Shown here piece after piece: positions 5,997 to 64,000 of a DNA stretch of 64,000 nt. The stretch spans positions 1 to 64,000 of the IMG/VR virus record IMGVR_UViG_3300034407_003088, one strand, 5' to 3'. The position numbers and the translations under genes are program-made. The notes beneath the pieces are model-generated. The model was not told the origin of the DNA. It was given only the letters and a program-made list of their open reading frames with translations, and did no database searches. Numbering within the stretch: the first letter of the stretch is position 1; each line of letters begins with the position of its first letter. This stretch comes from a virus. Taxonomy: Duplodnaviria > Caudoviricetes.

Positions 5997-7387
5997 ATTT
6001 CTTCTATCTCGTCAAAAAGTTTTTTAAATTGTTCATTTCTTTTACTACCCAATTCCATAAAATGATTATAGTTGTGTAGTAATATATCTTTCATATCTGA
6101 ATACCACTTTATCATTTCCTTTTCAGAAATGTTTTGTAGTCTTTTTATTTCACCAAGAATCATATTATATCTTTTTTTATTATCTACTACCTTATCATAA
6201 GATTCATCTATGAATGGATGAAAAGTCTTAAACCCAAGATTTCTTAATTCTTTCATGGTATTGGGTCTACCAAAAGTTATAAATGGGTGAAAATTACCCA
6301 CACACTTCCAAGTCTTTTCAGTTATATAATCACTTCTCCTAAAAAAATTAGATTCTGTAACTATACTATAATAAGTATTTAACCAAGGTTTTTTAATATC
6401 TCCTCGGAAACCATGTATATCTGATAAATCCTCATGGTCAACCATTCTCTTTTTTAGTCTAACTGCCTTCTTAACATATCTTTCAAATTCTTTTCTATAT
6501 GTTTTTTCATCATCATATATCATTTTAAACTCTTCAATATAAGTGTCTGTTCTTTTAGGAAAATTAAAGTCACCATCTAATTTGAATTGAAAACTAACTA
6601 AGTTATCATCTAATACACCCATTTTAATTAATTCACCAATCAACATAACACGATGTGGATGCATTCTTCTATTAAAACATAAGAACTTATGGTCTCTACT
6701 TTTACCCAAACTATTTTGAAAATCCTTTACACTAACAGAACCAAGTTTTCCTTTTAATTCTACTGATTCAAAGTTTTCTATACCCATATTATATTCATGT
6801 CCCTTTTCATATAAAAAATAATGATAATTCATAACCTTAAATCTATCTGTAGTTTGTACATTTTTTTGATGCCATGTGTTATATTGTTTCTCAATACCAT
6901 GGTTACCACTTGTTAATATTATTATTTTTTTCATAGGTAATTTATTTGACATACAAATTTGCCACAATCTTTCAAAAAATGAATCAACAACTAAACCCTC
7001 ATGTACCATTGTTATTAATATGTATCCATTTGATTGTTTTAACTTTGTCATTGTAGTAGGTGGTATTGCCTGAGAAAAGTTCCAACCATCATATAAAGTA
7101 TTTGGTTTTTGATTAATCCCAAATGACTTTTGAAAATCCCCAAATATTTCAACAGGATAAATCCAAGTATCATCAGGATTAACTTTTTTTATATTTACTA
7201 TTTTATCTTCATAAAAGTTTCTAAAACTTGAATTATAAACATGCCATGGTTCACCAAAATGTTCTCTCACAGAACTCTCAGTAACATCATAGTTACCATT
7301 ATGATTTTGTAATACAAACTTTATAATTTCAGGATGACATGCGTTAGGTATTAAATAAGGCTTATTAACATCAAATACTATTTTCAT
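5984..7387 (-). CDS. Uncharacterised glycosyltransferase-like protein ('TEK' family, copy 1)
   Basis: FLCFNRRMHPHR...YSIVTES...ITEKTWK...HPFITFG...LGFKTF..FIDESYD; the C-terminus resembles the GT10/GT47-type TEK motif. Confidence 0.6.
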   Translation of the reverse strand: MKIVFDVNKPYLIPNACHPEIIKFVLQNHNGNYDVTESSVREHFGEPWHVYNSSFRNFYEDKIVNIKKVNPDDTWIYPVEIFGDFQKSFGINQKPNTLYDGWNFSQAIPPTTMTKLKQSNGYILITMVHEGLVVDSFFERLWQICMSNKLPMKKIIILTSGNHGIEKQYNTWHQKNVQTTDRFKVMNYHYFLYEKGHEYNMGIENFESVELKGKLGSVSVKDFQNSLGKSRDHKFLCFNRRMHPHRVMLIGELIKMGVLDDNLVSFQFKLDGDFNFPKRTDTYIEEFKMIYDDEKTYRKEFERYVKKAVRLKKRMVDHEDLSDIHGFRGDIKKPWLNTYYSIVTESNFFRRSDYITEKTWKCVGNFHPFITFGRPNTMKELRNLGFKTFHPFIDESYDKVVDNKKRYNMILGEIKRLQNISEKEMIKWYSDMKDILLHNYNHFMELGSKRNEQFKKLFDEIEEICTK

Positions 7388-8226
7388 ATCATCTCCAAGA
7401 TTCTTTTTTTAATAACATTGTTGAAATATATTTTATGACCATCCCATTGTACATGAAGATTATCATCCCAAAATGGTAATTTATTCTCAATTGCATATTC
7501 ATATAAACCATCATAATCATTTATAAATTGAAAATTTTCAAAGTCTATTTGTTCAAATAAATGTTCTGTTTCTTTATATTGTTTGTGTAGAAACTCACCA
7601 TCCTTATTAGTAAATATATTCTTCATTGTGTGAAATACATATTTTATTTTATTTAATTTACAAAAAGATTGTAATCTTAATATAGATTCAAAGGTATTAA
7701 TGATAGAATATTCATTTGTGTAGAAGTTTTCGTAATAAGTATTAAACCAATCTTTATACTCTTTAAATGTATAACCATCTTTATTTGGAAAACCACCACT
7801 TCTCAAATAACCCCAATTTCTATTTTCTTGATTATAAGAAGTATCAAAACCTTCTCCCAACCTCAATGGTTCAGTATTACCCTTGTGTTGAGTTAGTTCA
7901 GGCCATTTATATGTTTCATCTATGGATGCAAATAAATCAGTTCTTATTGGGTCACTCCACATTACTGAAAGTATTATTTCATCGGATTTAATATTTGGTA
8001 TTTTTAATATATTACTCAAAGTATAAATAACTCTTCTTGAAATTAAAGAATTACCTGATGCAGGTTCACCTGTATGATAGTAAAATGGAAAATCAAATGA
8101 TTCTTCAATTGCATTTGACCATGTTTTTTCTTGTTCTTTCATTATAGGTAAGTCTGCTCTTTTGGAAAAACTACAACCACCTGTAACTAATCTATAAGTC
8201 TTATCTGTCATTATAGTAGTCTCCAT
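7384..8226 (-). CDS. SGNH/GDSL-like protein (copy 1)
   Basis: LVTGGCSFS nucleophile block, GNSLISRR, VMWS, C-terminal NLHVQWDGH. Confidence 0.65.
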   Translation of the reverse strand: METTIMTDKTYRLVTGGCSFSKRADLPIMKEQEKTWSNAIEESFDFPFYYHTGEPASGNSLISRRVIYTLSNILKIPNIKSDEIILSVMWSDPIRTDLFASIDETYKWPELTQHKGNTEPLRLGEGFDTSYNQENRNWGYLRSGGFPNKDGYTFKEYKDWFNTYYENFYTNEYSIINTFESILRLQSFCKLNKIKYVFHTMKNIFTNKDGEFLHKQYKETEHLFEQIDFENFQFINDYDGLYEYAIENKLPFWDDNLHVQWDGHKIYFNNVIKKRILEMI

Positions 8227-9541
8227 ACTCTACTAATATAGTTGAACCATCTCTATCGTATGCTTTTGTAAATTCATTAAATATATCCTCTGTCCTATCA
8301 AGTACTACCACTTCTACTTCTGTTAACATACTTTTCAATTCCTCTATATAATTTTGTGTGTGTTGAACTCCACCATTTAGTGGTTCACGAGAACCGATTG
8401 CAGTCCTTATAATTACTTTTGGTTTCATTTGACCATTACTCATATTTTGAATTTTATCCAAATGATTTACTAAACTATCCATACATCTAAGTAAGAAGTC
8501 CATTCTTGGAAAACAACTAATTGGAACATGTCCATTAAGTGCCATACCTGTACTCATTCCCATTTGTATTTCTTCAAACACAGGTAATTCTAATCTCTTA
8601 TCATCATCAATGTCTTGTAATGTTCCATAAATAGAATTACCACTATACTTAACTGATTGTCCCATGAAAATAGTATCTTCTTTATCACTTAACCATTTCA
8701 TAGAACGATTTAATTCATCTTTATACTTCATAATAATTGGTTCTCCATTATCATCCTCTACTATTTGAAATTTCATATCCATATCATGAAATCCAAACGC
8801 AGTTTGTTTTCTATGTGGAAGAATAGATATTGTATGATTACCCAAAGAAAACTCACTTGTTAAACTTGGTGATGCAAACTTTAAATCATATTTTTTTAAT
8901 TCTTCGTAGTTCTCATGTATTAACAAATCTTCATTTTGTTTAAATATCATACCACCCATTTCATCAAATCTATAAATGATTCCATTTTTATTTTTTGTAT
9001 TAGTAAAATAATCAGAAGTAGATTCACAAAACTTTTTTGACCTTAGTGTTAATCCACCATTGAAATGTCTAATATCTTCTATAAATTCAGAATCATCTTT
9101 TTGAAATCCATCAGATATTGTATATACTAAGTCATAATCAAGAAACTCATCTTTCCATTTATCAATATTGGTTATGAAACAATCCCATTGAATCAATAGT
9201 ACATGTTTTGCATCAAAGTATTTATGTAGATATTTTAATACGAACTCTCCATAATCATGATAATCCATTGTACCTCTTAATTGAATCCAATTGTGTTCTT
9301 CACATGGATGTGGTGGTACGAGTGGTGAAACAATAGCGAAACTCCTAAAAGGTAATTTCTCCTCAAACTCTTTCAACACTTCAACACTTTTTTCAAGTCT
9401 TTGGTGTGAAACTGAATCACCACATCCATCAATCAATCTAACATCAATATCATATTTATAATTTTTATTTTTATAAACATGACTCATATTAGGATAGTAG
9501 TCATCTTGCCAATAATATCCTTCTGTATGGTCTTTAATCAT
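8201..9541 (-). CDS. Fusion of a DUF5672-like GT-A domain and a ThDP-dependent E1-beta/transketolase pyrimidine-binding domain
   Basis: N-half: VLLIQWDCFI..W.DEFLDYD, FNGGLTLRSKKF, NEDL, FGFH. C-half: MKYKDEL..FMGQSV, ELPVFEEIQMGMSTGMALNG, PRMDFL, NHLDK, HTQN. Internal GGAGA + ATG at 8731. Confidence 0.8.
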   Translation of the reverse strand: MIKDHTEGYYWQDDYYPNMSHVYKNKNYKYDIDVRLIDGCGDSVSHQRLEKSVEVLKEFEEKLPFRSFAIVSPLVPPHPCEEHNWIQLRGTMDYHDYGEFVLKYLHKYFDAKHVLLIQWDCFITNIDKWKDEFLDYDLVYTISDGFQKDDSEFIEDIRHFNGGLTLRSKKFCESTSDYFTNTKNKNGIIYRFDEMGGMIFKQNEDLLIHENYEELKKYDLKFASPSLTSEFSLGNHTISILPHRKQTAFGFHDMDMKFQIVEDDNGEPIIMKYKDELNRSMKWLSDKEDTIFMGQSVKYSGNSIYGTLQDIDDDKRLELPVFEEIQMGMSTGMALNGHVPISCFPRMDFLLRCMDSLVNHLDKIQNMSNGQMKPKVIIRTAIGSREPLNGGVQHTQNYIEELKSMLTEVEVVVLDRTEDIFNEFTKAYDRDGSTILVEYGDYYNDR

Positions 9542-52193: not shown

Positions 52194-53506
52194 GGTTTTG
52201 GTAAGTGGTGTGTTGTTGTTATAATAGTATTCTCCAAATAATAATTGTCATAACCTTCAATTTGTAATCCATAAAAAGACATAGGTTCCTCATGTAATTC
52301 TACATGTGTTATTGGATTATCTAAAAACCTATCTCCAACTTTTACATCTGTAGTTTTTACAAATTGGAATTCATTGTCTCTATTAATATATATAAACTCA
52401 ATTGGTGAAAACATAAAATTATTTATCTCAACCCAAGTTTTAAAAGTATACTGATGGATATTACTTACTTTTCCATAATCACATATGTCATTGTGTTGTT
52501 TTTCTTTATAATCTACCCATGGTCTGTTTATATCAACTATTGTATCATCATTTACTTTATTTAATATAAAAGGTTTTGCAGGTGTTGGATAGTGATGTCC
52601 CACTAATTCTTTTATTGTACTTACTTTTACCTTATCACCTATTTCTACTTCTCGTATTGGTTTATCAATTACAAAAGTTGAAGATTCAAGTACCTCTACT
52701 TTTGTCTCACCACCTACTTGAGCCCATATCCCACTTCTTACAAATGTACTATTTTCAAATTTCATTTCAAACATATTGTCTAACTTAGGATTTTTATTTA
52801 CATGAGTTGGATTACCAACTAAATTAATAATTTCTGAATAACTTATATTTGAACTTTGTGGTCTAATAGGTATCATTCCTAACTTATCCATTAAAAATAA
52901 ACACTTCAATACTATTGGATTCCCATACTCGTCTGTATATGGTTTGATATATTCTTCACAATAATCACTATCATCATATTGACAATTAGGCATATAATCA
53001 TAATAAGGTGTAGTTTTTAGAAAGTCTCTGAATAGATTCTTATATCTTGATAAAGTAATTAAACCTTCACCATGTTTTGTTGTGGGTAAATTTTTTATAT
53101 AATATGTGTCATCGTCTTTTGAAAAATTTTCTCTTGATTTTGCATAAATTACTTGACATTGTGGTAATTCCTTTGTAAGTTTAGATATAAATTGTGGTTC
53201 TGGATTGAATCCTTTATCCTCTTCTCTTATAACTAATTTTACTTTTTCATAACCCTTAACCCACAAATGTTTTTTTATTCGTTCAAAGTCTATTCCCGCA
53301 GAACCATATAACATTAAATCAGTAAGTGCAAGGTCTGTATTTATTTCTAACAAATATAACTTTTTATCTTCAGACAAAATCCAATCAAAAGTTAATAACT
53401 CACCCTCATTTACATCATTACTTACATAATCACTAAGATAAAGTGGTGTACCAATCTGTAGTGATTTGATAATTGCCTCATTTATGATATGGAAACTTCT
53501 GACCAC
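52190..53506 (-). CDS. ATP-grasp-like N-terminal domain fused to a degenerate Hint-like domain
   Basis: TFDWILSEDKKLYLLEINTD (ATP-grasp D...ExN motif). C-terminal KPIREVEIGDKV, TDVKVGD, FYGLQIEGYDNYYL follow the Hint pattern but lack C1, TxxH and HN. Confidence 0.55.
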   Translation of the reverse strand: MVRSFHIINEAIIKSLQIGTPLYLSDYVSNDVNEGELLTFDWILSEDKKLYLLEINTDLALTDLMLYGSAGIDFERIKKHLWVKGYEKVKLVIREEDKGFNPEPQFISKLTKELPQCQVIYAKSRENFSKDDDTYYIKNLPTTKHGEGLITLSRYKNLFRDFLKTTPYYDYMPNCQYDDSDYCEEYIKPYTDEYGNPIVLKCLFLMDKLGMIPIRPQSSNISYSEIINLVGNPTHVNKNPKLDNMFEMKFENSTFVRSGIWAQVGGETKVEVLESSTFVIDKPIREVEIGDKVKVSTIKELVGHHYPTPAKPFILNKVNDDTIVDINRPWVDYKEKQHNDICDYGKVSNIHQYTFKTWVEINNFMFSPIEFIYINRDNEFQFVKTTDVKVGDRFLDNPITHVELHEEPMSFYGLQIEGYDNYYLENTIITTTHHLPKP

Positions 53507-54056
53507 TTGGTATCTCTCTTTTTAAAAATTTACATAATACTTCCCAACCATCACCTTTTGATAAATCCATATGTAAGATGTTTTTGGGATTCACTCTCTT
53601 ATTTAACCAAAGTAAATTACTTTGATGTTTAAAATCTGTTTTACCTTTTATCCAATCTTTTTGATATTGTGGATAATTTTCAAATACTTCTTTACCACCA
53701 ACTCCTAACCAATTCCAAGAATCAACGATACCATCATCTAATCTTTTTATCTTATCTCTCAATACCGATTCTACATAGTCATCAAGTGGTCGTGTTAAGG
53801 ATATGTATCTTGCCCATGGATAATCATCTACTAAATGTGGAAATACTATTGGGTCATAAATAGGATAATCAAGAAATGCTTCATACTCATCGTAATCAGT
53901 TAATAGTTTCTTTTTGGTTTTCATATATTGATATACTGATTCAAGAAGTTCTCCACCACCACCTGTATGATATACTTTGAACCCAAGAATACTTAATGCA
54001 TCTGATAAACTTTTTGTACCTGTCTTATTGTAACCTAAAACAAATATTTTAGTCAT
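53478..54056 (-). CDS. Sulfotransferase-like P-loop protein (Sulfotransfer_4-like)
   Basis: VLGYNKTGTKSL..AL..LGFKVYH, ISLTR, GDGWEVLCKFL....P...FP. Confidence 0.85.
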   Translation of the reverse strand: MTKIFVLGYNKTGTKSLSDALSILGFKVYHTGGGGELLESVYQYMKTKKKLLTDYDEYEAFLDYPIYDPIVFPHLVDDYPWARYISLTRPLDDYVESVLRDKIKRLDDGIVDSWNWLGVGGKEVFENYPQYQKDWIKGKTDFKHQSNLLWLNKRVNPKNILHMDLSKGDGWEVLCKFLKREIPSGQKFPYHK

Positions 54057-54384
54057 CTAATAAGTCCAATAAGTCATTTATCTCTAATGCAATATATGTT
54101 TTACTTCTGTTTCTCTTAAATACTAATAGTGGTTTATGACCACCTGCATTTGTTTCTGCTTGTTCAAGAGAACTCCATATGTTTAATTTTTCTTGGTTTT
54201 TACACTCTACTGAGAATGGGAATAATTTACGAGCTGCTGGTGATAATAATATATCTTCACCACTATCTCCCATAGTAGTTGAACGAACATCGTCTGGTTC
54301 TAATTGTGTGAATTTCTCCAAGATTAAATCTCGGACATTGTTTTGTAACCGTTTTCCTTTGTTCTTTGCTGAACGAGTTTTCAT
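54049..54384 (-). CDS. PD-(D/E)xK nuclease, Holliday-junction-resolvase-like
   Basis: SAKNKGKRLQ, MGDSGEDI, SVECKNQEKLNIW, PLLVFKRNRS. Confidence 0.8.
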   Translation of the reverse strand: MKTRSAKNKGKRLQNNVRDLILEKFTQLEPDDVRSTTMGDSGEDILLSPAARKLFPFSVECKNQEKLNIWSSLEQAETNAGGHKPLLVFKRNRSKTYIALEINDLLDLLDD

Positions 54385-54409
54385 ATAAAACCTAATTTAG
54401 TTATGCAAT

Positions 54410-54438
54410 TGCTTTATTGCTTTTGCTTTTAATGCTTT
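54410..54438. repeat. Four TGCTTT direct repeats in the AT-rich intergenic region
   Basis: Copies at 54410, 54418, 54424 and 54433. Confidence 0.7.
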
Positions 54439-54441
54439 AGT

Positions 54442-54455
54442 TATTAATAAGTATA
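54442..54455 (-). promoter_or_regulatory. TATACTTATTAATA motif (identical to 47756-47769 on plus)
   Basis: Exact 14-mer match in two intergenic regions, each oriented toward the downstream gene. Confidence 0.55.
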
Positions 54456-54594
54456 TTATAAATCTCTCAGAATGTAATTTTTATTTAGAATTAGGCGTAT
54501 TTATTTCAGAGAAAAATAAGGTTGGATTTTTCTTAAAACCTTTAATGTTAACATAACTATAGTTAATAATATATATAAGACAAGAGAAGAAAAA

Positions 54595-54987
54595 TTAGAA
54601 TTTATTTTTCCATTTTCTGGAATATTCTTGTTTTGCCCAATTCTCAGCTTTTCTTTCCCATTTATTGGCCCAATATCTATCTTTACCATCTAAGTCTGCC
54701 ATATTGGAAGCTTGTTGGTATTTCTTTATAAACTTTTTTCTACCATATTTTGATATTTGTTTTGCATGATGTATCTCATGTAATACGGTAATAATAAACT
54801 CAGAAACCTTTGGATAAAATTTATTCAACATTATTGTATCTTTTGTCCAATCATACCCACCTTCATCTTTACCATATGTTCCAAATTTAACTTTAGATTT
54901 CAATCCATAGTATTTTACTAATTCAGATGCAACAAATAGTAAATCAACTCTTTCTTGTAATAAAAATATTTTCTTTAATGATGTCAC
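54595..54987 (-). CDS. HExxH zinc metallopeptidase-like protein
   Basis: TVLHEIHHAKQ ... WERKAENWA. Confidence 0.75.
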   Translation of the reverse strand: MTSLKKIFLLQERVDLLFVASELVKYYGLKSKVKFGTYGKDEGGYDWTKDTIMLNKFYPKVSEFIITVLHEIHHAKQISKYGRKKFIKKYQQASNMADLDGKDRYWANKWERKAENWAKQEYSRKWKNKF

Positions 54988-55607
54988 TTCTTCATACCTC
55001 TGAATAAAGCTTTTGCAACTTGTTTACCATAATCTCTATCACTTGGATAGTGTGCCTTTGCAATAATTCTTGATTCAGCGATATCAGAACCTTTTCCCAA
55101 ATATTCTTCAGAGTTAGATGGGTCTTTATATGATAGATACTCACCAATTAAATAACCTTGGATTGCATGTCCACTTGGATAACTTGGTGTTTTCATACTA
55201 TCTAATGTAGTACCATTTAAATCAATATCATAGAACTCTGCAATTTGATATGGTCGTGGTCTATTGTAATGATATTTTAACTCCATAATAAACTTGACAC
55301 TTTCTTTTACAATTTTTTTAATATCTTTTCTACTGATATCTAAACTATTTTTTTCTATTAACTCCATAAATGAATCTACAACATCATCATGTGATTTTGC
55401 AAACTCTTCATTGGGTTTAACATTTGATAAATATTTTATTTCTTTTAATGTTAGTGATGCATCATTTTCAGGTGGTTGTCGTCTTGGTAATACCAAATTT
55501 TCATCCCACAATTCTAATTTACGAGACATTCTTTTTTCGTCTTTAGGTCTAACACTTTCTGCATACACCATATTACGAAGTTCTAATAATTCTTTTAATT
55601 TAATCAT
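54984..55607 (-). CDS. PAP2/haloperoxidase-family phosphatase with MIKLKELLE leader
   Basis: KYHYNRPRP, TPSYPSGH, SRIIAKAHYPSD (all three PAP2 motifs). Confidence 0.92.
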   Translation of the reverse strand: MIKLKELLELRNMVYAESVRPKDEKRMSRKLELWDENLVLPRRQPPENDASLTLKEIKYLSNVKPNEEFAKSHDDVVDSFMELIEKNSLDISRKDIKKIVKESVKFIMELKYHYNRPRPYQIAEFYDIDLNGTTLDSMKTPSYPSGHAIQGYLIGEYLSYKDPSNSEEYLGKGSDIAESRIIAKAHYPSDRDYGKQVAKALFRGMKK

Positions 55608-56260
55608 TTCTTAACATTACCTATAACTACTGGTTTAGAACTTTTATTTTTTGTATGACTATTAATGTAATAATGTGCATCACTCAAATTAAAATCAAAA
55701 CCTTTTTTATTAAGTGCAAATCCTTTAATATCAAAAATCTTTGTAAGATATTCATCATTCATAAATGAACCTATCTTTTGATTACCAATATCTGATTGTT
55801 TTGCCTTTGGAAATACCTTTGATACTTTTTGACTATTGAATTTCTCAAGGTTCTTAACAATACTACTTATCTTTTTATATTTAGGCATAAATAATTTTGT
55901 AAAACTTTTACCACCTGGTAATGCATTTATTACTCTGTTTGGTTCTTTAAAGTTTTTCTTAGGATTTTTTAATGCCTGTTCTAATTTCTTTACAGAAGTT
56001 AAGATTGGTTCTTTTATTGGTCTTTTTTTCCAATCACCTAAATTATAAAATGGTTTTAATAATTCTCTATCATCAAAATCAGTAGCAACTATATCTACTT
56101 TCCTACATAATTCATATAGTTCTTTCATTGCCTGACCTAATGGTTTAAGGTAAAACTTACCATAATTAATGTGTCCAAATGCAATAACCCCACCCTTTTC
56201 TCTTGGTGGCGACATTGTTGATATTGGATTCTCTACTAATAAATCTTTTAATTTAATCAT
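55604..56260 (-). CDS. Hypothetical protein with MIKLKDLLVE leader
   Basis: Start ATG 56260 via a TAATG overlap with the upstream small ORF. Confidence 0.75.
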   Translation of the reverse strand: MIKLKDLLVENPISTMSPPREKGGVIAFGHINYGKFYLKPLGQAMKELYELCRKVDIVATDFDDRELLKPFYNLGDWKKRPIKEPILTSVKKLEQALKNPKKNFKEPNRVINALPGGKSFTKLFMPKYKKISSIVKNLEKFNSQKVSKVFPKAKQSDIGNQKIGSFMNDEYLTKIFDIKGFALNKKGFDFNLSDAHYYINSHTKNKSSKPVVIGNVKK

Positions 56261-56406
56261 TATCTTCCCCAACGATTTTGTTGTTGTGCATCAGGATTCT
56301 TTGCTTTCCACTTTTTATGTTGGTTTGCAGTTCTTCCCTCTCGTGCCCACTTTTTATTTAATGCATGTCTTTTTTGTTTTCTACTTTTTGCTTCTCTATT
56401 TGGCAT
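56260..56406 (-). CDS. 48-aa basic microprotein (MPNREAKSRKQKRHALNKKWAREGRTANQHKK...)
   Basis: Manual translation; AAGGA upstream, TATTTATA motif at 56428-56435, TAATG coupling to the next gene. Confidence 0.7.
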   Translation of the reverse strand: MPNREAKSRKQKRHALNKKWAREGRTANQHKKWKAKNPDAQQQNRWGR

Positions 56407-56427
56407 ATCATGTATTCCTTATCCATA

Positions 56428-56435
56428 TATAAATA
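56428..56435 (-). promoter_or_regulatory. TATTTATA intergenic motif
   Basis: In the gap upstream of the 48-aa ORF and the leader-bearing enzyme cluster. Confidence 0.55.
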
Positions 56436-56478
56436 GTAATCGTAGTAAAGATTACCGCTGTTCCTAATGCTAAATCTA

Positions 56479-57231
56479 TCATCTCCAATCCCATACTTTA
56501 AGTGCATTATAGGTGATTCCAAATCCAACTACTGGTTCTGTTAAACCTGTAGTTTGGTCATATGTGATTCCAAAAAACGGCCCAACACTTATTTGGTTTC
56601 TCGGTGGTTTAATTTTAAAGGGATTACTTCTTCTACTATTCAATCTTATACCATCAAATTGTCTTTCAGGTACAATTGCATACCATTCACCTTTAATTTC
56701 ACCTTCTTCTATAAAAGGTTCTCCTTGTTGAATACTACCATCAAATCCTAAATCTGTTTCTGAATCTACAATACTATCATTTACTATTGCAACACCAGTT
56801 CTACCAAAGATTCTTAAGTAGTCATCTTGTCTACCAAATTCTTTTTCAAATGGAACTACTCCAGCACCACTTGAATGTGATTCTCTATTATCATAAATAG
56901 AAGCCTTCTTAGAAAGTTGTTCCTTAATAGTATCTAATTCTACTTGGAACTCATCCATTTTTTTCTTTAGATTTCTATTCTCAATACCACGAGTTTTATC
57001 ATGGTCGTGTAAATCTTTTAATAAATTGTTATTTTGTTTTACCAAAATCTCAACCGAGTCTTGTAACTCTGTAATCATTACATCTTGTCGTGCAGAATCT
57101 TCTCTCAAGAAATCCATCTCTTCTTGAGCATAATAATAACGAATTCCCACGATACATAAAATAAAGAGAATATTTAGGAATCCACCTATTACCCACTCTC
57201 TTCTTTTTTGTGGCCAATGTTTTAACAACAT
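56479..57231 (-). CDS. Membrane-anchored coiled-coil protein with amphipathic beta C-terminus (spanin-like architecture)
   Basis: N-terminal TM (VIGGFLNILFILCIVGI), heptad region, C-terminal ISVGPFFGITY...VVGFGITYN. Confidence 0.6.
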   Translation of the reverse strand: MLLKHWPQKRREWVIGGFLNILFILCIVGIRYYYAQEEMDFLREDSARQDVMITELQDSVEILVKQNNNLLKDLHDHDKTRGIENRNLKKKMDEFQVELDTIKEQLSKKASIYDNRESHSSGAGVVPFEKEFGRQDDYLRIFGRTGVAIVNDSIVDSETDLGFDGSIQQGEPFIEEGEIKGEWYAIVPERQFDGIRLNSRRSNPFKIKPPRNQISVGPFFGITYDQTTGLTEPVVGFGITYNALKVWDWR

Positions 57232-57239
57232 ATGAACTC

Positions 57240-57758
57240 CTATTCTATATTTTCAAGAGCATCCTCAATGGCCTTCTTCAAAGAACCACCTAACTCACTC
57301 TTACCAAACTCCACATCCTCTTGAATTTGTAAACCTGCAGCTGATACTTGTGTAGTTGTTTCACCAATACCACGATAACTTCTCTGTACACCTTCTTTGT
57401 TTTGTACTAAGTTTAAAAGTAATCTAACTTCGGTTTTTTGATTTCTACGATTAAATAAACCTGCAATACTAAATGCTTCATTAGGTTTACCAATATATAG
57501 AATCTCTACATTTGCAGTATAATCGGCATTATCATCATCTGTTAATCTATATCGTGTATCTTGAAATTGTTCTTCAAGTAATTGTTTCACACCTAAAGTT
57601 ACTCTTTCATCAACCACACCAATCGTTTCATCTACTTTAACAAATTGTGATATTTTTAATGTAGGAAACTCAACATCTTTACCAACCACTGCTGGTTGTG
57701 GTAATGATTGTGAATATCCAAATCCTATCAATAATAACATCATAATTAGTTTCTTCAT
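57240..57758 (-). CDS. Exported CsgG/TolB-N-like alpha/beta protein
   Basis: Signal peptide MKKLIMMLLLIGFGYS; LGVKQLLEEQF...RYRL; beta-hairpins; terminal GSLKKAIEDAL helix, paralleling the CsgG-like gene nearby. Confidence 0.55.
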   Translation of the reverse strand: MKKLIMMLLLIGFGYSQSLPQPAVVGKDVEFPTLKISQFVKVDETIGVVDERVTLGVKQLLEEQFQDTRYRLTDDDNADYTANVEILYIGKPNEAFSIAGLFNRRNQKTEVRLLLNLVQNKEGVQRSYRGIGETTTQVSAAGLQIQEDVEFGKSELGGSLKKAIEDALENIE

Positions 57759-57768
57759 TTTGTTCTCC

Positions 57769-58752
57769 TTAAAAGTATGTTCCGAACATTATAGCATAAG
57801 TTTTAGTTCTTTCACCATAATCGTTCACAACCGTATTGTATCCCATTGAGAATCCTAAGTTCACCTTAAATGCTTGACTCAATTGAAAATCAAAAGAAAT
57901 CGTAGGCATAAGTATGATAGGACTCTTCAATAATAAATATTGTTTTCCTGAATTTAATCCCTTATAATATCTTAATAATGTATAAGATACATAGTTAGTA
58001 AGTGTTATTTTACCAAATGATAAATCTAATGGCATTCTCATACCATATAATACTGATAAATTACCAAATGCATTTTTACTAACATTTCCATATGCAGTTG
58101 TTAAGACAATTACTTCAGAATTTTGTTTAACAAGTGACTTTGCATATGAACTTGATAATAACCAATCAGTTCCTTCAAATGTTCTAAAGAAAACACCTGA
58201 TGCACTTATCACTTGATTTTGTTTCTTTGCAAGAAAATTTATTCCTTGACCATATGATGCATTAAATCTACTGAAATCATCAGTAAAACTAAAGTTACCA
58301 TCGTATCTTGATTTACCATCAAAACTTTCTCTTGTATAAATACTATTAAAAGATGTTACCCAACTACTATCTATGGTTGGTGAAGTTTTAATACCATAAT
58401 TAACTGCACCCACATCATTACTTACATCTTGTTTTGTGAATTGTTCTGTAGCGTTACTTGCCAGAACTGACGATAATATTTCTTCTGCAACCCTTACTGC
58501 ACATGGAAATAAATCTTCAAAATCTCGGTAGACATTTTCAGTCCATGTCTCCAATGTTCCATTTGTTATTTGTTCAAATGTAAAAAATTTAGATTTATTA
58601 TAGTATGTAACATAAAATCCACCATTAGTGGGTTCAAGATTATAATTATCACGAACCACTATCTGATTACATGGGTCAATATAACTATAAAGAAAACCTT
58701 GGGCAGAGACACTACCCCATAAAAGTATTATTAATAATAATCTCTGCCACAT
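57769..58752 (-). CDS. Exported protein, probable outer-membrane beta-barrel
   Basis: Signal peptide ending VSA|Q, alternating aromatic strands, C-terminal YAIMFGTYF beta-signal. Confidence 0.6.
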   Translation of the reverse strand: MWQRLLLIILLWGSVSAQGFLYSYIDPCNQIVVRDNYNLEPTNGGFYVTYYNKSKFFTFEQITNGTLETWTENVYRDFEDLFPCAVRVAEEILSSVLASNATEQFTKQDVSNDVGAVNYGIKTSPTIDSSWVTSFNSIYTRESFDGKSRYDGNFSFTDDFSRFNASYGQGINFLAKKQNQVISASGVFFRTFEGTDWLLSSSYAKSLVKQNSEVIVLTTAYGNVSKNAFGNLSVLYGMRMPLDLSFGKITLTNYVSYTLLRYYKGLNSGKQYLLLKSPIILMPTISFDFQLSQAFKVNLGFSMGYNTVVNDYGERTKTYAIMFGTYF

Positions 58753-58757
58753 TCATT

Positions 58758-59396
58758 CTACCAACCTCTTCTGTCAATTGCTTTAATAACATTGACAACA
58801 GCTGTTTCCATAGCCTTGTTAGATGCAGAACTTAAAGAACTTTGATTCCATTCCATATTAGGATTCTTTAAAAATCCTTGTCCTATGGTGGATGCTCTTC
58901 CTTGTCCACTTCCAACAACATACTGAGTATTCTCATTATTGATTACTTTAACTTGGATACCAACAATAGTTTCATTTATTGTTTGAACTTTACCAGTTTT
59001 GATATCTTCTTTCAAGTTAACAGCGAAATCATAAATAGTTACATACGCAGTGTATTTAGTTTTCTCTATTTTAGCTTCGTTGGCTTTAAGGTCGTTCAAC
59101 ATAGATAATTGTATATCTCTGTCCGCCTCTACGAGATTGAATCTACCAATGAAAGAAATAACATTTGCAAGTTCTTGGTTTAACCCAAATGCAACTCGTT
59201 TATCTCCAAGTTCTGGATATCTATCCTCAAGTTCTTTATTGAACTTAACATCCAAAATCTTTAGATTATCAACTTTAGTTATTTCAACTTCATCAAGAGA
59301 TTTCTGTTTCTCATACTCACCAACATATTGTTCAGTTGATACTGATGCAGCACATCCCATAAAAACCATTAACGATAATAGTAATAGTTTTTTCAT
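58758..59396 (-). CDS. CsgG/HfaB-family lipoprotein
   Basis: Lipobox VFMGC; GLNQELANVI...RFNLVE; VTIYDF; VGIQVKVIN; GSGQG; KAMETAV. Confidence 0.72.
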   Translation of the reverse strand: MKKLLLLSLMVFMGCAASVSTEQYVGEYEKQKSLDEVEITKVDNLKILDVKFNKELEDRYPELGDKRVAFGLNQELANVISFIGRFNLVEADRDIQLSMLNDLKANEAKIEKTKYTAYVTIYDFAVNLKEDIKTGKVQTINETIVGIQVKVINNENTQYVVGSGQGRASTIGQGFLKNPNMEWNQSSLSSASNKAMETAVVNVIKAIDRRGW

Positions 59397-59740
59397 TACT
59401 TTGCTCCTATATGATAACCAACTACCATCCCCATAAGGAAGTTAATTAGTCGTCTTTGTTTTACTTTTCGTTTGAACTTCTTTCGTTGTTCATGTTTATT
59501 CTTATGAACATTCATCTTATGTTTCATACGAATTTTGTGATGTCGGTTGTGTTGAAACCTCATCTTATCCTCTTTCCATCTTTTGTTTTCATCTTGAATA
59601 CGATAATGGTTGTCTCTTTGTTCTTGTTTTTGAATAGCCTTATCAACTTCTTCAGGTGTCATATAGGCATCTTGTCCAAATAACTGAGAACTCACACTAA
59701 ACAAAACCACAGCAATTAGTAGTTTTACAAATTTACTCAT
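59396..59740 (-). CDS. Signal-peptide protein with H/K/R-rich helix and C-terminal membrane segment
   Basis: LFG|Q signal, RFQHNRHHKIRMKHK, LINFLMGMVVGYHIG. Confidence 0.7.
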   Translation of the reverse strand: MSKFVKLLIAVVLFSVSSQLFGQDAYMTPEEVDKAIQKQEQRDNHYRIQDENKRWKEDKMRFQHNRHHKIRMKHKMNVHKNKHEQRKKFKRKVKQRRLINFLMGMVVGYHIGAK

Positions 59741-59749
59741 AAGTACTCC

Positions 59750-60130
59750 TTACTTGAAATCAGACAATGGGTCTTTTAATAACTTCTCTAATCTTGAGAT
59801 TTCACTTTTTAATTTATCAATCTCATTCTGTAGTTTAATTATATCACCATCGTATGATTTCACTTTTGGTGTTTTTAAACCATCTACTTTTTCTCGTAGA
59901 TATTTTAATTCTTCATCAATATTGTTAAAGTTATTCGTTACAATTTCAATATCACTTGCTTCTGCAAATCCTTGTACTACTTCTTCCAACGAATCAATAC
60001 GGCCAGTAAAACTATACCAACCAGCAATTGCGGTAGAAAGAAAAGTAACAATAGCAATAATATTGTTAATTGATACTCCGAACTTTTTCCCTTTAACATC
60101 TTCAATAGCTTGTTCTATATCTTTTGCCAT
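59750..60130 (-). CDS. Single-TM coiled-coil protein
   Basis: IIAIVTFLSTAIAGWY TM followed by heptads; AAGGAG RBS. Confidence 0.75.
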   Translation of the reverse strand: MAKDIEQAIEDVKGKKFGVSINNIIAIVTFLSTAIAGWYSFTGRIDSLEEVVQGFAEASDIEIVTNNFNNIDEELKYLREKVDGLKTPKVKSYDGDIIKLQNEIDKLKSEISRLEKLLKDPLSDFK

Positions 60131-60141
60131 TTTATTTCTCC

Positions 60142-60198
60142 TTAATTACAACAACCACATTCACAACCGCAGTCACAATTACAATTTGTTTTTTTCAT
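60142..60198 (-). CDS. 18-aa Cys-rich microprotein MKKTNCNCDCGCECGCCN
   Basis: Manual translation; GGAGA 7 nt before ATG; fills the gap between two genes; 7 Cys. Confidence 0.7.
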   Translation of the reverse strand: MKKTNCNCDCGCECGCCN

Positions 60199-60199
60199 T

Positions 60200-61069
60200 T
60201 TATATCTCCATGTTTATTGTTAACAATAATGTGTTTTTTAATGGATGGGTTTCATTACCATTTAATACACCCAATCCAAACTTCCACTTTTCAAATTTAA
60301 AATCAAATCCTAATGATGAGTAATTTAAATCATGTTCTACATCATTATAGTACCCAGCATTTACCCAAAACATATTTTTTAAGTTATAGGAAATACCTTG
60401 TCCATGAGTATGATATCCATCATAAAGATTCCATTGATTATAAATATCCCACTTATCTTTTATTGGTATGTGTAAACCAACATTAAATGCAGATGGTTGT
60501 GTTATTTCAAATCCATTCATCTTGGTCATATAACCAACATTAGATATTCCTAAATCTAAATTAACCATTCCATATAATTTATGAAAATGTAAACCTACAT
60601 CAAGTAACAAACCATCAGTTTTTTCAGTATATAAATCGTGGAATATTGCCTTACCTCTAAGTCCAATAGATACACTATCTACTCGTTTACCTTTGTTAAG
60701 TAAATCAGTTCCCCAACCTATTCCTAATACTAAAGTACTTGGTGAAAAGTTACCATTTATAATACCACTTTCATCTGCGAAGTTTTGTTCACCATAATTA
60801 AAATATAAAAGTGAATAATCAAGTTTACCTTTTTCAACTTCTATATAATTGTATCCCATATCATCTACAATGTTACCTAACCATTGTACATTAGTGAAAC
60901 TAACATTAGTAGTAGTATCAAGGTTTAAATTGTTAAGTGCAGGATTTCTAAATGCAAGTGATTGGTTACCCAATATTGTTTCACTTGTAGTAGGTGAAAG
61001 TGTAAGGACACTATTTACCTGTCCAAACAAACTACCAATCATTAATAATCCTATTAATATATTTTTCAT
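60200..61069 (-). CDS. PorV/PorQ-like outer-membrane beta-barrel
   Basis: Signal peptide; NPA motif (FRNPAL), SFTNVQWL...DMGYNY, YFNYGE..DESG...G.F, DVGLH, NVG; alternating strands to the C-terminus. Confidence 0.7.
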   Translation of the reverse strand: MKNILIGLLMIGSLFGQVNSVLTLSPTTSETILGNQSLAFRNPALNNLNLDTTTNVSFTNVQWLGNIVDDMGYNYIEVEKGKLDYSLLYFNYGEQNFADESGIINGNFSPSTLVLGIGWGTDLLNKGKRVDSVSIGLRGKAIFHDLYTEKTDGLLLDVGLHFHKLYGMVNLDLGISNVGYMTKMNGFEITQPSAFNVGLHIPIKDKWDIYNQWNLYDGYHTHGQGISYNLKNMFWVNAGYYNDVEHDLNYSSLGFDFKFEKWKFGLGVLNGNETHPLKNTLLLTINMEI

Positions 61070-61173
61070 TTTCTGTTCTCCAATTTTTCAGATATCCAAA
61101 CAATACCCTTTAGAGTCAAATACCCTAATGGTAGTATTAAAAATAATAATCCAAAAAATTTTATAGTTTCCAT
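61066..61173 (-). CDS. 35-aa single-TM microprotein (METIKFFGLLFLILPLGYLTLKGIVWISEKLENRK)
   Basis: Manual translation; TAATG and ATGA overlaps at the two ends. Confidence 0.65.
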   Translation of the reverse strand: METIKFFGLLFLILPLGYLTLKGIVWISEKLENRK

Positions 61174-64000
61174 TATTTTACCACCGTAAATTTATTAGCT
61201 TTTATTTTCTTGTCTGTTTCAAGAACAAATATATAAACACCTGGTTCTAAAGTTTGATGATTCTCATATACACTTACTTCAGGTAACCAAACACTTGGTT
61301 CATTTGTAAAGTCAAATGTATGTATTCCTGAATCAACTACTTCATCTAATAATGTTCCAATGTATTGTCCATTAGAATTTAATATATAAAGTTTTACTTG
61401 TTCCGTTTGGTCTAAGAAGAATTGGAACTTAGTGTTTTCTGTAAAAGGATTTGGGTAGTTATAAGTTATCTCATCATCACCTGGTTCTCCACCACCGAAT
61501 GCCCAATACTTATTCCATACCATCACTTTACCACTTTCTCTTTTCATATTTAAATCATCACCATTTGGATTACCTGCTGCATATTTACCAATGAATCTAA
61601 TAGGAGCTTCACTCCATTCTTCATCAGGAAACTCTGCTCTGAACATTAATTTTAATGCACTCATCGGTTCATTAATCCAATAATTATTTGGTGAGTTACC
61701 TGGTGAATAATCCATACCACCAAATCTTACTCTTTGCCATCCCTCTTCAACTTCACCTACATTAACATAGGTCATCCATGGGCCTGGTAGATTACCAGTC
61801 TTCATATCAATAAATGTTAATTCATTTGTATTAAACTCAACTTCAAATTCAAACCCTGCAATATCAATACCCTCTGTTGGTGTGATATTTAATGGTACTT
61901 CAATTACCTCACCACTTTGAACTCTTACGGTTGAATCAGGTGGGAATGATAATGTTACATCATGGTCTGTCATGAATGATTTCATTGCCATTCTATTATT
62001 TCCACCACCAACTATTCTTGCCCACTCATCAGGTGCGTCTCCATTACCCCAACGATAATATGTTGTTCCGTCTACGGTTGGTGTAATTGCAGTTCCATTG
62101 TTATCAACTTTTAAACCTGTTAAATTCACATCACCTGTAAAGTAGTATGCAATATCTGAGTCATTATCAGTTCCAACAATATCTACTTGTTTAGAACCAT
62201 CTTGTGTTTCTGTATCATTGAAGTAATAATCAGGATTAGCATCACTACCAAATGTAGAACTACCTGCCCCAACTTTAATACTTAATACATCTAATCTGGT
62301 CTCAACATCATTCATCAATGGATTCAATCTAATAATACCACCACCATCAGTAGTTAGTTCTGTAGTTTCTTGTGCTAAATCACCATCAACAAATATACTG
62401 AACTCTCCTCTTTGGTTTCTTGTGTATCCATCATAATCTTCTTTGTAAGTATAAGAGTCATCACTTCCATTTAAATTATCTATACTTGACCATTGTTGAT
62501 AAGTTTCTCCATTGTAGTGTGTGTATGATGTTTCAAACACTCCACTTGTGTATGCCCATAAGAAGTAGGCATCATTTAATTGGAACTTATCATCACCATC
62601 AACATCACCAACTAAATATCCACTTGGTGATTCTATTTCTATATCTGTTTCGTTATCAAATTTATTTGATTGAAAATTAAATCCTGCAATAGCATCATTA
62701 ATATTTGTAATTGCATCTCTATCTAATAGATAAGTGGTATGGTCTCCAACCACATCATCTGCTTCTGGTGGCCAGAATGATACTTTATATCTGTTGTTTC
62801 GTGGTAAAGAAATATTGAAATATCCTTTATCATCTGTGTATGTCCAATACGAATAAGTTACATCTCTAAATCCTTGATTCTGAATCTTTTGGTCTGATGT
62901 TGTTCCGGCATTTTGTTCATAGTATCTCATATGTTGATACCCTAATGCAAAATTTCCAAACTCATCGTAAGTTCCCATAACATCATCATTTAAAGATTCA
63001 TCTGTTAAACTTGTTGGATAATTAATATCTCGTATGTTTCTCCAATTAGAAAGATTATCTGTATTAGTTTCATCTACTTCAAAGATAACTTTCATCATTG
63101 CATATTTGTTTTGTGAAAAATCTTCACCACTATCTTTTGTTCCATCTTTATCAGTATCAATCCATTCACCAATGTATCTTAAGTATCCCTCAAGTTGTAC
63201 AAGTTTTGGATGTAGTGTGATATCTCCACGAGCACCACCATTGTAAGTTCTTTCTGCTGAATAGTAATCACCCCAATTACCATCAATGTAAACTTTATAA
63301 TCTAAAAGATAATCATCTGAAACATATGTGTAGTATCCCTCACTACCATCGTATTGAGTTGCAACTCTAAATGCTCTTGGTGCAAAATCATCAACTACAT
63401 CATTAATTAAAAATTCAAGTTTTAAAATTTGTTTCTGAACTCCATCACCACCACCAAACATTTTATCTGGTGTTCCATCGTTATCTGAATCAACTCCGTG
63501 AGATACTGCAGTTATTCTTAACCAATCATATCTTGTATCTGTTATGGACTCTTCTACTAATGATTCAGAACTACCAACTGCTAATGAATCTTGATATCCT
63601 ACATTTGGATAATGAACTACTTCAAAAGAATAATCTGCATTAGATGATTCATCACCTTCAGTCCAACCACTTATGTGTGAACCTTTAATAACTCTTGAAT
63701 TTCCTTGTGTCCAAGCATTAACTGATGTTTCACCACTCTCCACCCAAGTGATTAAATCATTATCAAATGCTATATCTATTCTGAATGTTGTGATATCTGC
63801 ACCATTATCATCAAGTGTAACTTCCATCTCCAATACTTTATCTCTCCAAATATCAAAGTTATTATTATCTTCAGCTGGTTTAGTTACATCTTGTGCTAAG
63901 AAATCGTCTAAATCTTGTGTAACTGAGTCTTTCCACCACATTGCTGGCGTAGACCAATTACCTAATTGTTTTACTCTAATAATTGGGTCTTGTGCAAACA
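61173..64000 (-). CDS. Large secreted protein with cohesin-like, dockerin-like and T9SS type A C-terminal sorting domains (5' end off window)
   Basis: Frame stays open past 63941 to 64000 (..FAQDPIIRVKQ). Two cohesin-like domains (TFRIDIAFDNDLITW; AGFEFEVEFNTNELTF), GDVDGDDKFQLNDA dockerin-like repeat, NYPNPF...VKLYILNSNGQ.I..L...LEPGVYIFVL...KFTVVK CTD. Confidence 0.85.
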   Translation of the reverse strand, partial: FAQDPIIRVKQLGNWSTPAMWWKDSVTQDLDDFLAQDVTKPAEDNNNFDIWRDKVLEMEVTLDDNGADITTFRIDIAFDNDLITWVESGETSVNAWTQGNSRVIKGSHISGWTEGDESSNADYSFEVVHYPNVGYQDSLAVGSSESLVEESITDTRYDWLRITAVSHGVDSDNDGTPDKMFGGGDGVQKQILKLEFLINDVVDDFAPRAFRVATQYDGSEGYYTYVSDDYLLDYKVYIDGNWGDYYSAERTYNGGARGDITLHPKLVQLEGYLRYIGEWIDTDKDGTKDSGEDFSQNKYAMMKVIFEVDETNTDNLSNWRNIRDINYPTSLTDESLNDDVMGTYDEFGNFALGYQHMRYYEQNAGTTSDQKIQNQGFRDVTYSYWTYTDDKGYFNISLPRNNRYKVSFWPPEADDVVGDHTTYLLDRDAITNINDAIAGFNFQSNKFDNETDIEIESPSGYLVGDVDGDDKFQLNDAYFLWAYTSGVFETSYTHYNGETYQQWSSIDNLNGSDDSYTYKEDYDGYTRNQRGEFSIFVDGDLAQETTELTTDGGGIIRLNPLMNDVETRLDVLSIKVGAGSSTFGSDANPDYYFNDTETQDGSKQVDIVGTDNDSDIAYYFTGDVNLTGLKVDNNGTAITPTVDGTTYYRWGNGDAPDEWARIVGGGNNRMAMKSFMTDHDVTLSFPPDSTVRVQSGEVIEVPLNITPTEGIDIAGFEFEVEFNTNELTFIDMKTGNLPGPWMTYVNVGEVEEGWQRVRFGGMDYSPGNSPNNYWINEPMSALKLMFRAEFPDEEWSEAPIRFIGKYAAGNPNGDDLNMKRESGKVMVWNKYWAFGGGEPGDDEITYNYPNPFTENTKFQFFLDQTEQVKLYILNSNGQYIGTLLDEVVDSGIHTFDFTNEPSVWLPEVSVYENHQTLEPGVYIFVLETDKKIKANKFTVVK

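Follow-up and report, generated by a model that had tools for sequence, protein, structure and literature searches.

A candidate host-envelope cassette with type IX secretion cargo and CsgG-superfamily proteins in a large marine phage

What use might a large marine virus have for a run of genes whose products all appear to be addressed to the envelope of its host? The question is raised by bases 1–64000 of a 79,130-bp IMG/VR virus record (IMGVR_UViG_3300034407_003088; CheckV completeness estimate 41%), a 64,000-nucleotide stretch that we refer to as the window. Its last part, positions 56479–64000, together with an extension to 64052 or 64085 in the full 79-kb record, holds eight densely packed envelope-bound genes and a micro-open reading frame (micro-ORF). 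Every gene lies on the minus strand, and the labels A to H follow ascending coordinates, so transcription runs from H to A. A preliminary description of the window had proposed that these genes encode a type IX secretion system (T9SS) cargo protein, a PorV-like barrel, two CsgG-like proteins and a further beta-barrel. Our preferred reading is that these genes form an accessory cassette directed at the host envelope, carried by a large marine myovirus of Bacteroidota, which would build a surface display or anchoring module by means of the host Sec, Lol, beta-barrel assembly machinery (BAM) and T9SS pathways; in our estimate its chances are somewhat better than even.

Predicted components of the cassette

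All eight products carry a Sec, lipoprotein or transmembrane (TM) signal. Judged by hydropathy and inspection of the N-termini, B, C, E, G and H have signal peptides of the signal peptidase I (SPI) type, D has a lipobox (FMGC), and F and A begin with a TM helix that is followed by a coiled coil. The residue at the predicted cleavage site is Gln in all five of the SPI-type signals. It is invariant or nearly invariant in the alignments of B, C and G and is retained in all 19 homologues of H. A Gln at the signal cleavage site is the Bacteroidetes Q-rule, which was reported to be phylum-specific (PMC5837995), and Q-rule signal peptides were noted in one study of P. gingivalis phages (PMC10367356). 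The exported set is sharply bounded, since no export signals were seen on inspection of the flanking genes (I, J, K and L upstream; g222, PAP2 and others downstream).

The first gene of the cassette in the direction of transcription, H, encodes a protein that is predicted to consist of a Sec signal, conserved N-terminal domains, a Ca-motif region, a cohesin-like module (residues ~715–860) and a type-A C-terminal domain (CTD; ~875–970). The CTD matches TIGR04183 with 27.2 bits (cut-off 23) over residues 848–939 of the 941-aa window frame, scores 18 bits against Pfam PF18962, which is under the cut-off of 27, and keeps the motifs YPNPF...GVY...K. Across the 19 homologues the hydrophobic leader (..FAQ↓DP) and the mature N-terminus (Q-x-PIIR) are conserved, and the best-conserved parts are the CTD (0.75–0.93 identity) and the cohesin region (0.78). 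Pfam Cohesin (PF00963) matches H itself with 24.5 bits against a cut-off of 24.1, covering 48 of 139 model positions. The C-terminal part of H also aligns (hhalign 95.8–96%) with cohesin-plus-CTD proteins from Flavobacterium phage immuto and from L046 (CAIWBA010000291.1), a 254-kb contig that was placed in a Bacteroidetes metagenome-assembled genome (MAG) but very probably comes from a jumbo phage. These two proteins score 36.7 and 36.8 bits against Pfam Cohesin, the latter over the full model, and the cohesin call for H is therefore supported transitively. In addition, the H profile gave weak matches to the PDB, all of them to cohesins. The Sec signal, the TIGR04183 match above cut-off and the aligned cohesin region together identify H, by sequence, as a T9SS type-A cargo protein with a cohesin-like module. 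Both the cargo and the cohesin had been proposed in the preliminary description and are retained here, the cohesin marginally on its own score. The dockerin proposed in the same place is dropped, as PF00404 gave no Pfam match in H at E≤0.1 and a single EF-hand-like DVDGDD...ND motif is visible.

The neighboring gene G encodes a barrel with the signal peptide ..FGQ↓V. It matches the PorV/PorQ family NF033709 with E 2e-21 and 76.9 bits, short of the curated cut-off of 90, and reaches 54 bits against the PorQ equivalog (cut-off 220) and 39.8 bits against that of PorV (cut-off 250). The sole PDB match of the G-family profile is F. johnsoniae PorV (6h3i_F, E 2.6e-8), over the C-terminal 70 residues. 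Because its scores lie below the cut-offs, we regard G as a divergent member of the PorV/PorQ family and not as an orthologue of either protein, and in this form the PorV-like barrel of the preliminary description stands. PorV recognizes type-A CTDs, and a linkage between cargo and shuttle genes is common (PMC12618676). PorV is the shuttle for type-A cargo, and type-B cargo is linked to PorP/SprF genes (PMC5562754, PMC12618676, PMC12365241); T9SS attachment complexes comprise PorQ, PorU, PorV and PorZ (PMC12365241). By analogy with these systems, G probably serves H as its dedicated shuttle or anchor, and the combination of a type-A CTD with a PorV-family barrel points to a host that possesses a T9SS.

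Neither D nor B matched any family in direct Pfam and NCBIfam scans. An alignment of 31 D-family members was built from an exhaustive search of representative sequences. Of these members, 16 match CsgG (PF03783; best E 1.9e-17) and five match LpoB, and the D-family profile aligns with E. coli CsgG over the full length (hhalign 92.7%, E 4.4e-7). The same profile gave nothing significant against PDB sequences. An AlphaFold2 (AF2) model of D (pLDDT 81.8) matches CsgG (4q79/4uv2) in VIA with a Z-score of 12.5 and a root-mean-square deviation of 3.1 Å over 159 residues; further VIA matches are PelC (10.6), FlgT and LptE (~10–11) and the TraT decamer (7.4). Foldseek likewise returned PelC and CsgG, and the top match in BFVD is a phage protein named CsgG. 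The lipobox cysteine, Cys15, is nearly invariant in the family, which leaves a globular mature protein of ~197 aa, and D is probably periplasm-facing because no acidic export signal follows that cysteine. Profile and predicted fold thus place D, an outer-membrane lipoprotein, in the CsgG superfamily. Its paralogue B lacks the lipobox and is predicted to be soluble; the two profiles align with 97.2% and E 3.1e-11 (hhalign), and B also has a weak TraT match (E 0.048). Homologues of B are immuto gp019 and a 148-aa protein of L046. Thus both CsgG-like proteins of the preliminary description, the lipoprotein and the second exported protein, are upheld, the former by family profile, predicted fold and lipobox and the latter by its paralogy to D. 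The D fold and the G profile accordingly recover CsgG and PorV, the two likenesses on which that description had hung its case.

Kinship with CsgG invites the explanation that the cassette secretes an amyloid or adhesive fiber in the manner of curli (type VIII secretion), for aggregation ("sibling capture"), a speculation that has been published for pelagimyophages (PMC7029224). The constriction of the CsgG pore is formed by Tyr66, Asn70 and Phe71 (PMC7304575). In the alignment, Y66-P67 of the CsgG constriction loop corresponds to Y60-P61 of D, where Tyr60 is nearly invariant and Pro61 invariant, but Asn70 corresponds to Gly64 and Phe71 to a gap. The segments of D that are equivalent to TM1 and TM2 are ~4–6 residues shorter by alignment gaps and are polar with charged tips, and the second is predicted as a loop. 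No match to the curli partners CsgA, CsgB, CsgE or CsgF was found in the cassette with Pfam or NCBIfam. With the Asn and Phe lost, the hairpins short and polar and none of the four partners found, a curli-type channel for D, the kind of pore that the preliminary description had cited for CsgG, is unsupported. Given also that Methylophilales phage Melnitz, which carries a recognizable csgG, showed no clumping (PMC9004378), we consider curli-like secretion very improbable.

Distant bacterial relatives of D occur fused to, or adjoining, caspase-type Peptidase_C14/CHAT domains, without the other parts of the cassette (e.g. GCA_029261835.1), which sets the CsgG-like domain in another context. A 419-aa bacterial neighbor of one D homologue has no detectable likeness to C.

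The gene for C always lies 3′ of D. Its product has a signal peptide, an N-terminal domain with two invariant cysteines (C28 and C84), a helix and a C-terminal barrel that ends in ...GTYF. C had no Pfam or NCBIfam match, and a profile search for distant relatives gave close marine proteins alone. The AF2 model (pLDDT 52) places 12 strands between residues 117 and 326, after the helix, and its weak VIA matches are 12-strand barrels preceded by a helix (NalP, Z 15.5; EspP; KdgM; FapF, 12.1). The match of the L046 homologue extends over the N-terminal domain as well as the barrel. From the model, C is probably a small barrel of ~12 strands with an N-terminal Cys-pair domain, in line with the Phe-terminated barrel of the preliminary description, although the model is of low confidence.

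The remaining components are predicted to sit at the inner membrane or to be less regular parts of the cassette. E has a signal peptide, a very basic middle and a C-terminal TM helix, and is variable and often missing. By hydropathy, F is a bitopic inner-membrane protein, in which a short N-terminal stretch in the cytoplasm leads through a single TM helix to a periplasmic coiled coil of ~85 aa; it has weak matches to DUF2730 (E 0.0016) and to the Rz-like spanin family phrog_739 (E 0.0055). Its identity across relatives is 67–99%, and in loci without E its gene is coupled directly to that of D. A is likewise predicted from hydropathy to be bitopic in the inner membrane, with an N-terminal TM helix, a coiled coil and a beta-rich C-terminal domain. 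Its atlas neighbors, based on language-model features, are viral DUF6808/DUF6549 clusters (0.95). PF20647 (DUF6808) matches the C-terminus of an A homologue with E 3.7e-4, below the cut-off, no HMM match to DUF6549 was detected anywhere, and A matches phrog_739 with E 0.0059.

Phage context and conserved core

The block is embedded in phage genes. Upstream of it are gp25- and gp6-like baseplate wedge genes, a gene for a 1720-aa Vint-containing protein and the tail-fiber-like genes I and J; downstream are genes for a PDDEXK nuclease, a primase and a fused SbcCD. The gene order L-K-J-I-H-G-F-(E)-D-C-B-A recurs, at 35–99% identity, in more than 25 viral contigs that come from different metagenomes, far beyond what chance would give. 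Near-identical DNA is present in seawater or marine metagenomes, in 18 runs or more that belong to at least eight studies. One contig from a metatranscriptome library, from a relative that is ~90–95% identical, spans D to G; this is weak evidence of transcription, as DNA carry-over is possible. Across 185,579 species genomes that were scanned, D-family members turned up only on short contigs or on contigs that bear phage-type genes, and among ~400 sampled Bacteroidia genomes no D homologue was found besides that in the starting Flavobacterium MAG. We conclude that the block is phage-borne and not a chimera because of its phage flanks, its conserved viral synteny, its counterpart in a cultured phage (below) and the absence of the D family from the sampled Bacteroidia outside the starting MAG.

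These data bear on the explanation that the genes are a mis-assembled host operon, or else encode tail-fiber-associated proteins of the virion. The block does lie directly downstream of the tail-fiber-like I and J, and some copies were recovered in MAG bins. However, phage genes stand on both sides of it, the more than 25 contigs from different samples share these junctions, where the preliminary description had allowed for a host operon at a chimera junction, and the D family is absent from the sampled Bacteroidia genomes outside the starting MAG. Moreover, all of the products carry export or membrane signals, and such signals are needless on virion proteins that are assembled in the cytoplasm. 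This explanation is largely refuted, and we leave it next to no probability.

A counterpart of the cassette is found in immuto (NC_055915), where a cohesin protein with a Por_Secre_tail domain (34.6 bits for the latter) is followed by a small TM protein and by homologues of D, C and B. L046 has the same core order, beginning with a 642-aa cohesin-CTD protein. On a contig binned as Cloacimonadota, genes for two CTD proteins immediately precede those for a D lipoprotein and a barrel-like protein, and a short marine contig carries F-D-C-B at ~38–53% identity. Taken together, four divergent lineages (this clade, immuto, L046 and L048) carry a CTD cargo gene just upstream of D, and in the first three of these the cargo has a cohesin module and homologues of C and B follow. 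By sequence and gene order, the recurring unit is thus predicted to combine D, C and B with a T9SS cargo and a small inner-membrane protein. In the three other lineages compared (immuto, L046 and L048), hhalign detected nothing that resembles PorV or A. Within the clade, D (78–99% identity) and F exceed the primase in conservation, and G and H are the most variable. L046 also carries a Tad6 anti-Thoeris gene, a PRPP synthetase gene and a GH19 plus PG_binding endolysin gene, the last with a DUF481 outer-membrane protein adjoining the module.

The cassette is missing from several close relatives. L060, L061, L062 and L075, whose primases are 81–83% identical, lack it, as does L073 (primase 55%). 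Microcystis phage Mel-JY01 (PP395634, 160–190 kb) keeps the gene order found here, with gp25 and gp6, then N, L and K, several I/J-like paralogues, primase and SbcCD, and is also without the cassette, which would fit a host that lacks a T9SS, if its recorded host is right. Presence and absence among close relatives indicate that the cassette is accessory and not essential. In L060 the corresponding slot (4400–9200) holds genes for a 420-aa barrel-like protein with a Q-rule signal, a 190-aa protein with a TM helix and a coiled coil, a 64-aa lipoprotein, a 142-aa exported protein and a 360-aa acidic repeat protein. Because these are other envelope proteins, the junction between the tail and replication genes is a hot spot for swappable envelope cassettes.

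The Q-rule signals and the T9SS parts suggest that the host of the phage is probably a member of the Bacteroidota, an assignment made from sequence. Contigs of the clade have been binned into MAGs labeled Flavobacteriales, Gammaproteobacteria and Candidatus Pelagibacter (L043, NZWA01000008; L044, NZZP01000013; L045, NHJA01000023), and we do not take these labels as evidence for a host because the binning is inconsistent. The nearest cultured relatives are Mel-JY01 (wedge 47.5%, SbcCD 37.5%) and immuto (wedge 40%), with no pelagimyophage among them. A pelagimyophage identity had been considered on account of the low GC content, the curli-like genes and the one contig binned as Pelagibacter. It was rejected because the wedge and SbcCD relatives are Mel-JY01 and immuto, the signals follow the Q-rule throughout and T9SS parts are present.

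The layout of the locus is given in Table 1. The gaps between consecutive genes, from A to H, are 8, 10, 5, -1, 9, 69 and 103 nt. The micro-ORF has CxC repeats and is without a signal peptide; a CxC-rich ORF of 11–24 aa and divergent sequence stands at the equivalent spot in 13 of 19 related loci, and its possible roles include metal binding, regulation and that of a leader peptide. Two tiny ORFs lie 3′ of A (56260–56494, minus strand) and encode a 28-aa peptide with a single TM segment and a 48-aa very basic peptide. The preliminary description had counted ten genes where we count eight substantial ones, and the micro-ORF with the two tiny ORFs may account for its figure. Apart from the dockerin, the components that it had named lie where it had placed them, on the minus strand. 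Between the cassette and the primase, at 53478–55607 (minus strand), are genes for a sulfotransferase (PF17784, E 9e-23) and a PAP2 phosphatase (E 5e-8). The PAP2 gene is kept in relatives with and without the cassette, and a link to modification of lipid or lipopolysaccharide (LPS) is possible.

Table 1. Genes and micro-ORF of the cassette, in ascending coordinates of the record.
Feature	Position	Strand	Product	Remark
A	56479-57231	-	250 aa
B	57240-57758	-	172 aa
C	57769-58752	-	327 aa
D	58758-59396	-	212 aa
E	59396-59740	-	114 aa
F	59750-60130	-	126 aa
Cys-rich micro-ORF	60142-60198	-	18 aa	between G and F
G	60200-61069	-	289 aa
H	61173 to past window end	-	~959-970 aa	start 64052 (MIRF...) or 64085

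Possible roles of the cassette

If the favored reading of a surface display or anchoring module is right, the proteins of the cassette would take the host Sec, Lol and BAM pathways during infection, and H would cross the outer membrane by the host T9SS by virtue of its CTD. H might then be held or shuttled by the phage barrel G, as PorZ is by PorQ and PorU by PorV. The lipid-anchored D and the soluble B could form ring-type assemblies beneath the outer membrane, beside the barrel C, in an arrangement that would resemble PelC-PelB or LptE-LptD and not a self-sufficient CsgG pore, and the coiled-coil proteins F and A may tether this assembly to the inner membrane. The result would be an altered cell surface that bears a cohesin-type binding module. 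Its likeliest purpose would be to mask or block receptors, leading to superinfection exclusion or to the protection of progeny from cell debris, with adhesion as an alternative. Masking or exclusion is the most attractive purpose because the cassette is adjacent to tail-fiber-like genes, is dispensable and includes a protein whose fold is akin to that of TraT. In its most specific form this proposal becomes a previously unknown virus-encoded system, in which an outer-membrane platform (a D/B ring under C, with F and A as tethers), a hijacked T9SS and a PorV-like anchor jointly display a cohesin scaffold on the infected cell, for superinfection exclusion or for the benefit of progeny; we think it rather unlikely that all of these parts are as described.

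Several observations weigh against the display module. The host assignment is indirect, and contigs of the clade have gone into MAGs of three different labels. The cohesin score of H itself is marginal, and no dockerin partner was identified. G scores below the curated PorV/PorQ cut-off, and with no PorV-like gene detected in immuto or L046, a dedicated shuttle falls outside the conserved core. Confidence in the model of C is low. Finally, F and A, with a TM helix followed by a periplasmic coiled coil, resemble i-spanins, and the module of L046 adjoins an endolysin gene.

The last two points belong to a different explanation, according to which the block is a module for lysis or egress: F and/or A would be i-spanin-like and D their outer-membrane partner, and together with C and B they would disrupt or permeabilize the outer membrane or time lysis. 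Besides the i-spanin architecture of F and A and their weak phrog_739 matches (E ~0.006), it draws on the adjacent or overlapping and strongly conserved F and D, on the GH19 endolysin gene ~750 bp from the L046 module and on the alternative cassette of L060, which likewise includes a 64-aa lipoprotein along with a protein that has a TM helix and a coiled coil; a role in lysis timing has been proposed for the Melnitz CsgGF (PMC9004378). On the other hand, D has a 197-aa globular CsgG fold that is unlike a short Pro-rich o-spanin, and its homologues in immuto and L046 are not lipoproteins. What a T9SS cohesin cargo would contribute to lysis is not obvious, the cassette is missing from close relatives, and the immuto endolysin gene is ~7.7 kb away from the core. 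No endolysin family was found in the 79-kb record, which is incomplete, nor were GH19, T4-type lysozyme or the immuto endolysin found in four partial clade records, whose genomes are likewise incomplete. On balance we regard a lysis module as unlikely, but as the chief rival to the display module.

The fold matches of D to PelC and LptE (Z ~10), both of which partner with a separate barrel, raise yet another explanation: the cassette might be an outer-membrane conduit for a phage-made glycan or polymer, with D as a PelC/LptE-like ring or plug and C as the barrel. PAP2, sulfotransferase and radical-SAM genes are nearby. However, a 12-strand barrel is small for polysaccharide export, and no Wzx/Wzy, ABC or OPX/PCP parts were recognized in the cassette. 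Furthermore, the immuto core is located among replication genes and not glycan genes, and L062 and L075 retain PAP2 without the cassette. Such a conduit is in our view improbable.

Relation to known systems and significance

The nearest known counterpart of the cassette is immuto gp015–gp019, which has the same core in the same order and is annotated as a "cohesin domain-containing protein" and hypothetical proteins; its host, Flavobacterium sp. LMO8, is in culture. The D homologues share 29% identity (hhalign 100%), and tblastn with D found no cultured phage besides immuto. Unlike the cassette described here, the immuto block has no detected PorV-like gene or A homologue, its D has an SPI signal and no lipobox, its C has a long Gly/Ser/Thr linker, and the block, set amid replication genes, is preceded by a gene for a C-type lectin protein. 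In the literature, the closest case is the partial curli operon (csgG and csgF) of Melnitz and the pelagimyophages (HTVC008M group), which likewise belongs to marine myoviruses, is set between structural and replication modules and is missing from the host (PMC7029224, PMC9004378). It differs in that it encodes recognizable Proteobacteria-type CsgG and CsgF, whereas D is beyond the reach of Pfam, CsgF is missing and the partners are of the T9SS type.

Like bacterial pairs of T9SS cargo and barrel, the CTD cargo gene adjoins a PorV/PorQ-family gene and the type-A motifs are kept. Here, however, the pair is virus-encoded, G has 289 aa where PorQ and PorV have ~340–400, and there is no PorU-, PorZ- or sortase-like partner. 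With PelC-PelB and LptE-LptD the cassette shares a lipoprotein of the D fold (Z ~10) and a separate beta-barrel encoded nearby, but C has no sequence homology to PelB or LptD and its barrel is small (~12 strands). The likeness to the spanins Rz/Rz1 lies in the type-II inner-membrane topology and periplasmic coiled coils of F and A and in the lipoprotein D immediately downstream of F. It ends at the large, globular D, the lack of an adjacent holin or endolysin gene here and the dispensability of the cassette in relatives.

Surface-exclusion lipoproteins of mobile elements reside in the outer membrane and block re-entry, and one of them, Llp of phage T5, is encoded beside the receptor-binding protein. 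The cassette adjoins tail-fiber-like genes much as the llp gene adjoins that of the receptor-binding protein. Decameric TraT of the F plasmid has the same fold class as D (Z 7.4), a kinship that is at the level of fold or marginal.

The T9SS is central to the surface biology of Bacteroidota, and surface proteins secreted by it are implicated in the phage sensitivity of Flavobacterium. In the literature searched we found no description of phage T9SS cargo or PorV-like genes, of phage cohesins, of DUF6808 or DUF6549, or of a module like this cassette, whose components are predicted here from sequence. The cassette would represent a second independent case of phage-borne CsgG-family proteins, beside the csgG and csgF genes of the pelagimyophages and Melnitz, and the module is abundant in the ocean, with hundreds of protein clusters. 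A virus that supplies a T9SS cargo and a PorV-like barrel of its own would demonstrate the exploitation of the T9SS by phages, which is unreported in the literature searched, and since the core is present in the cultured pair of Flavobacterium sp. LMO8 and immuto, its function is directly testable.

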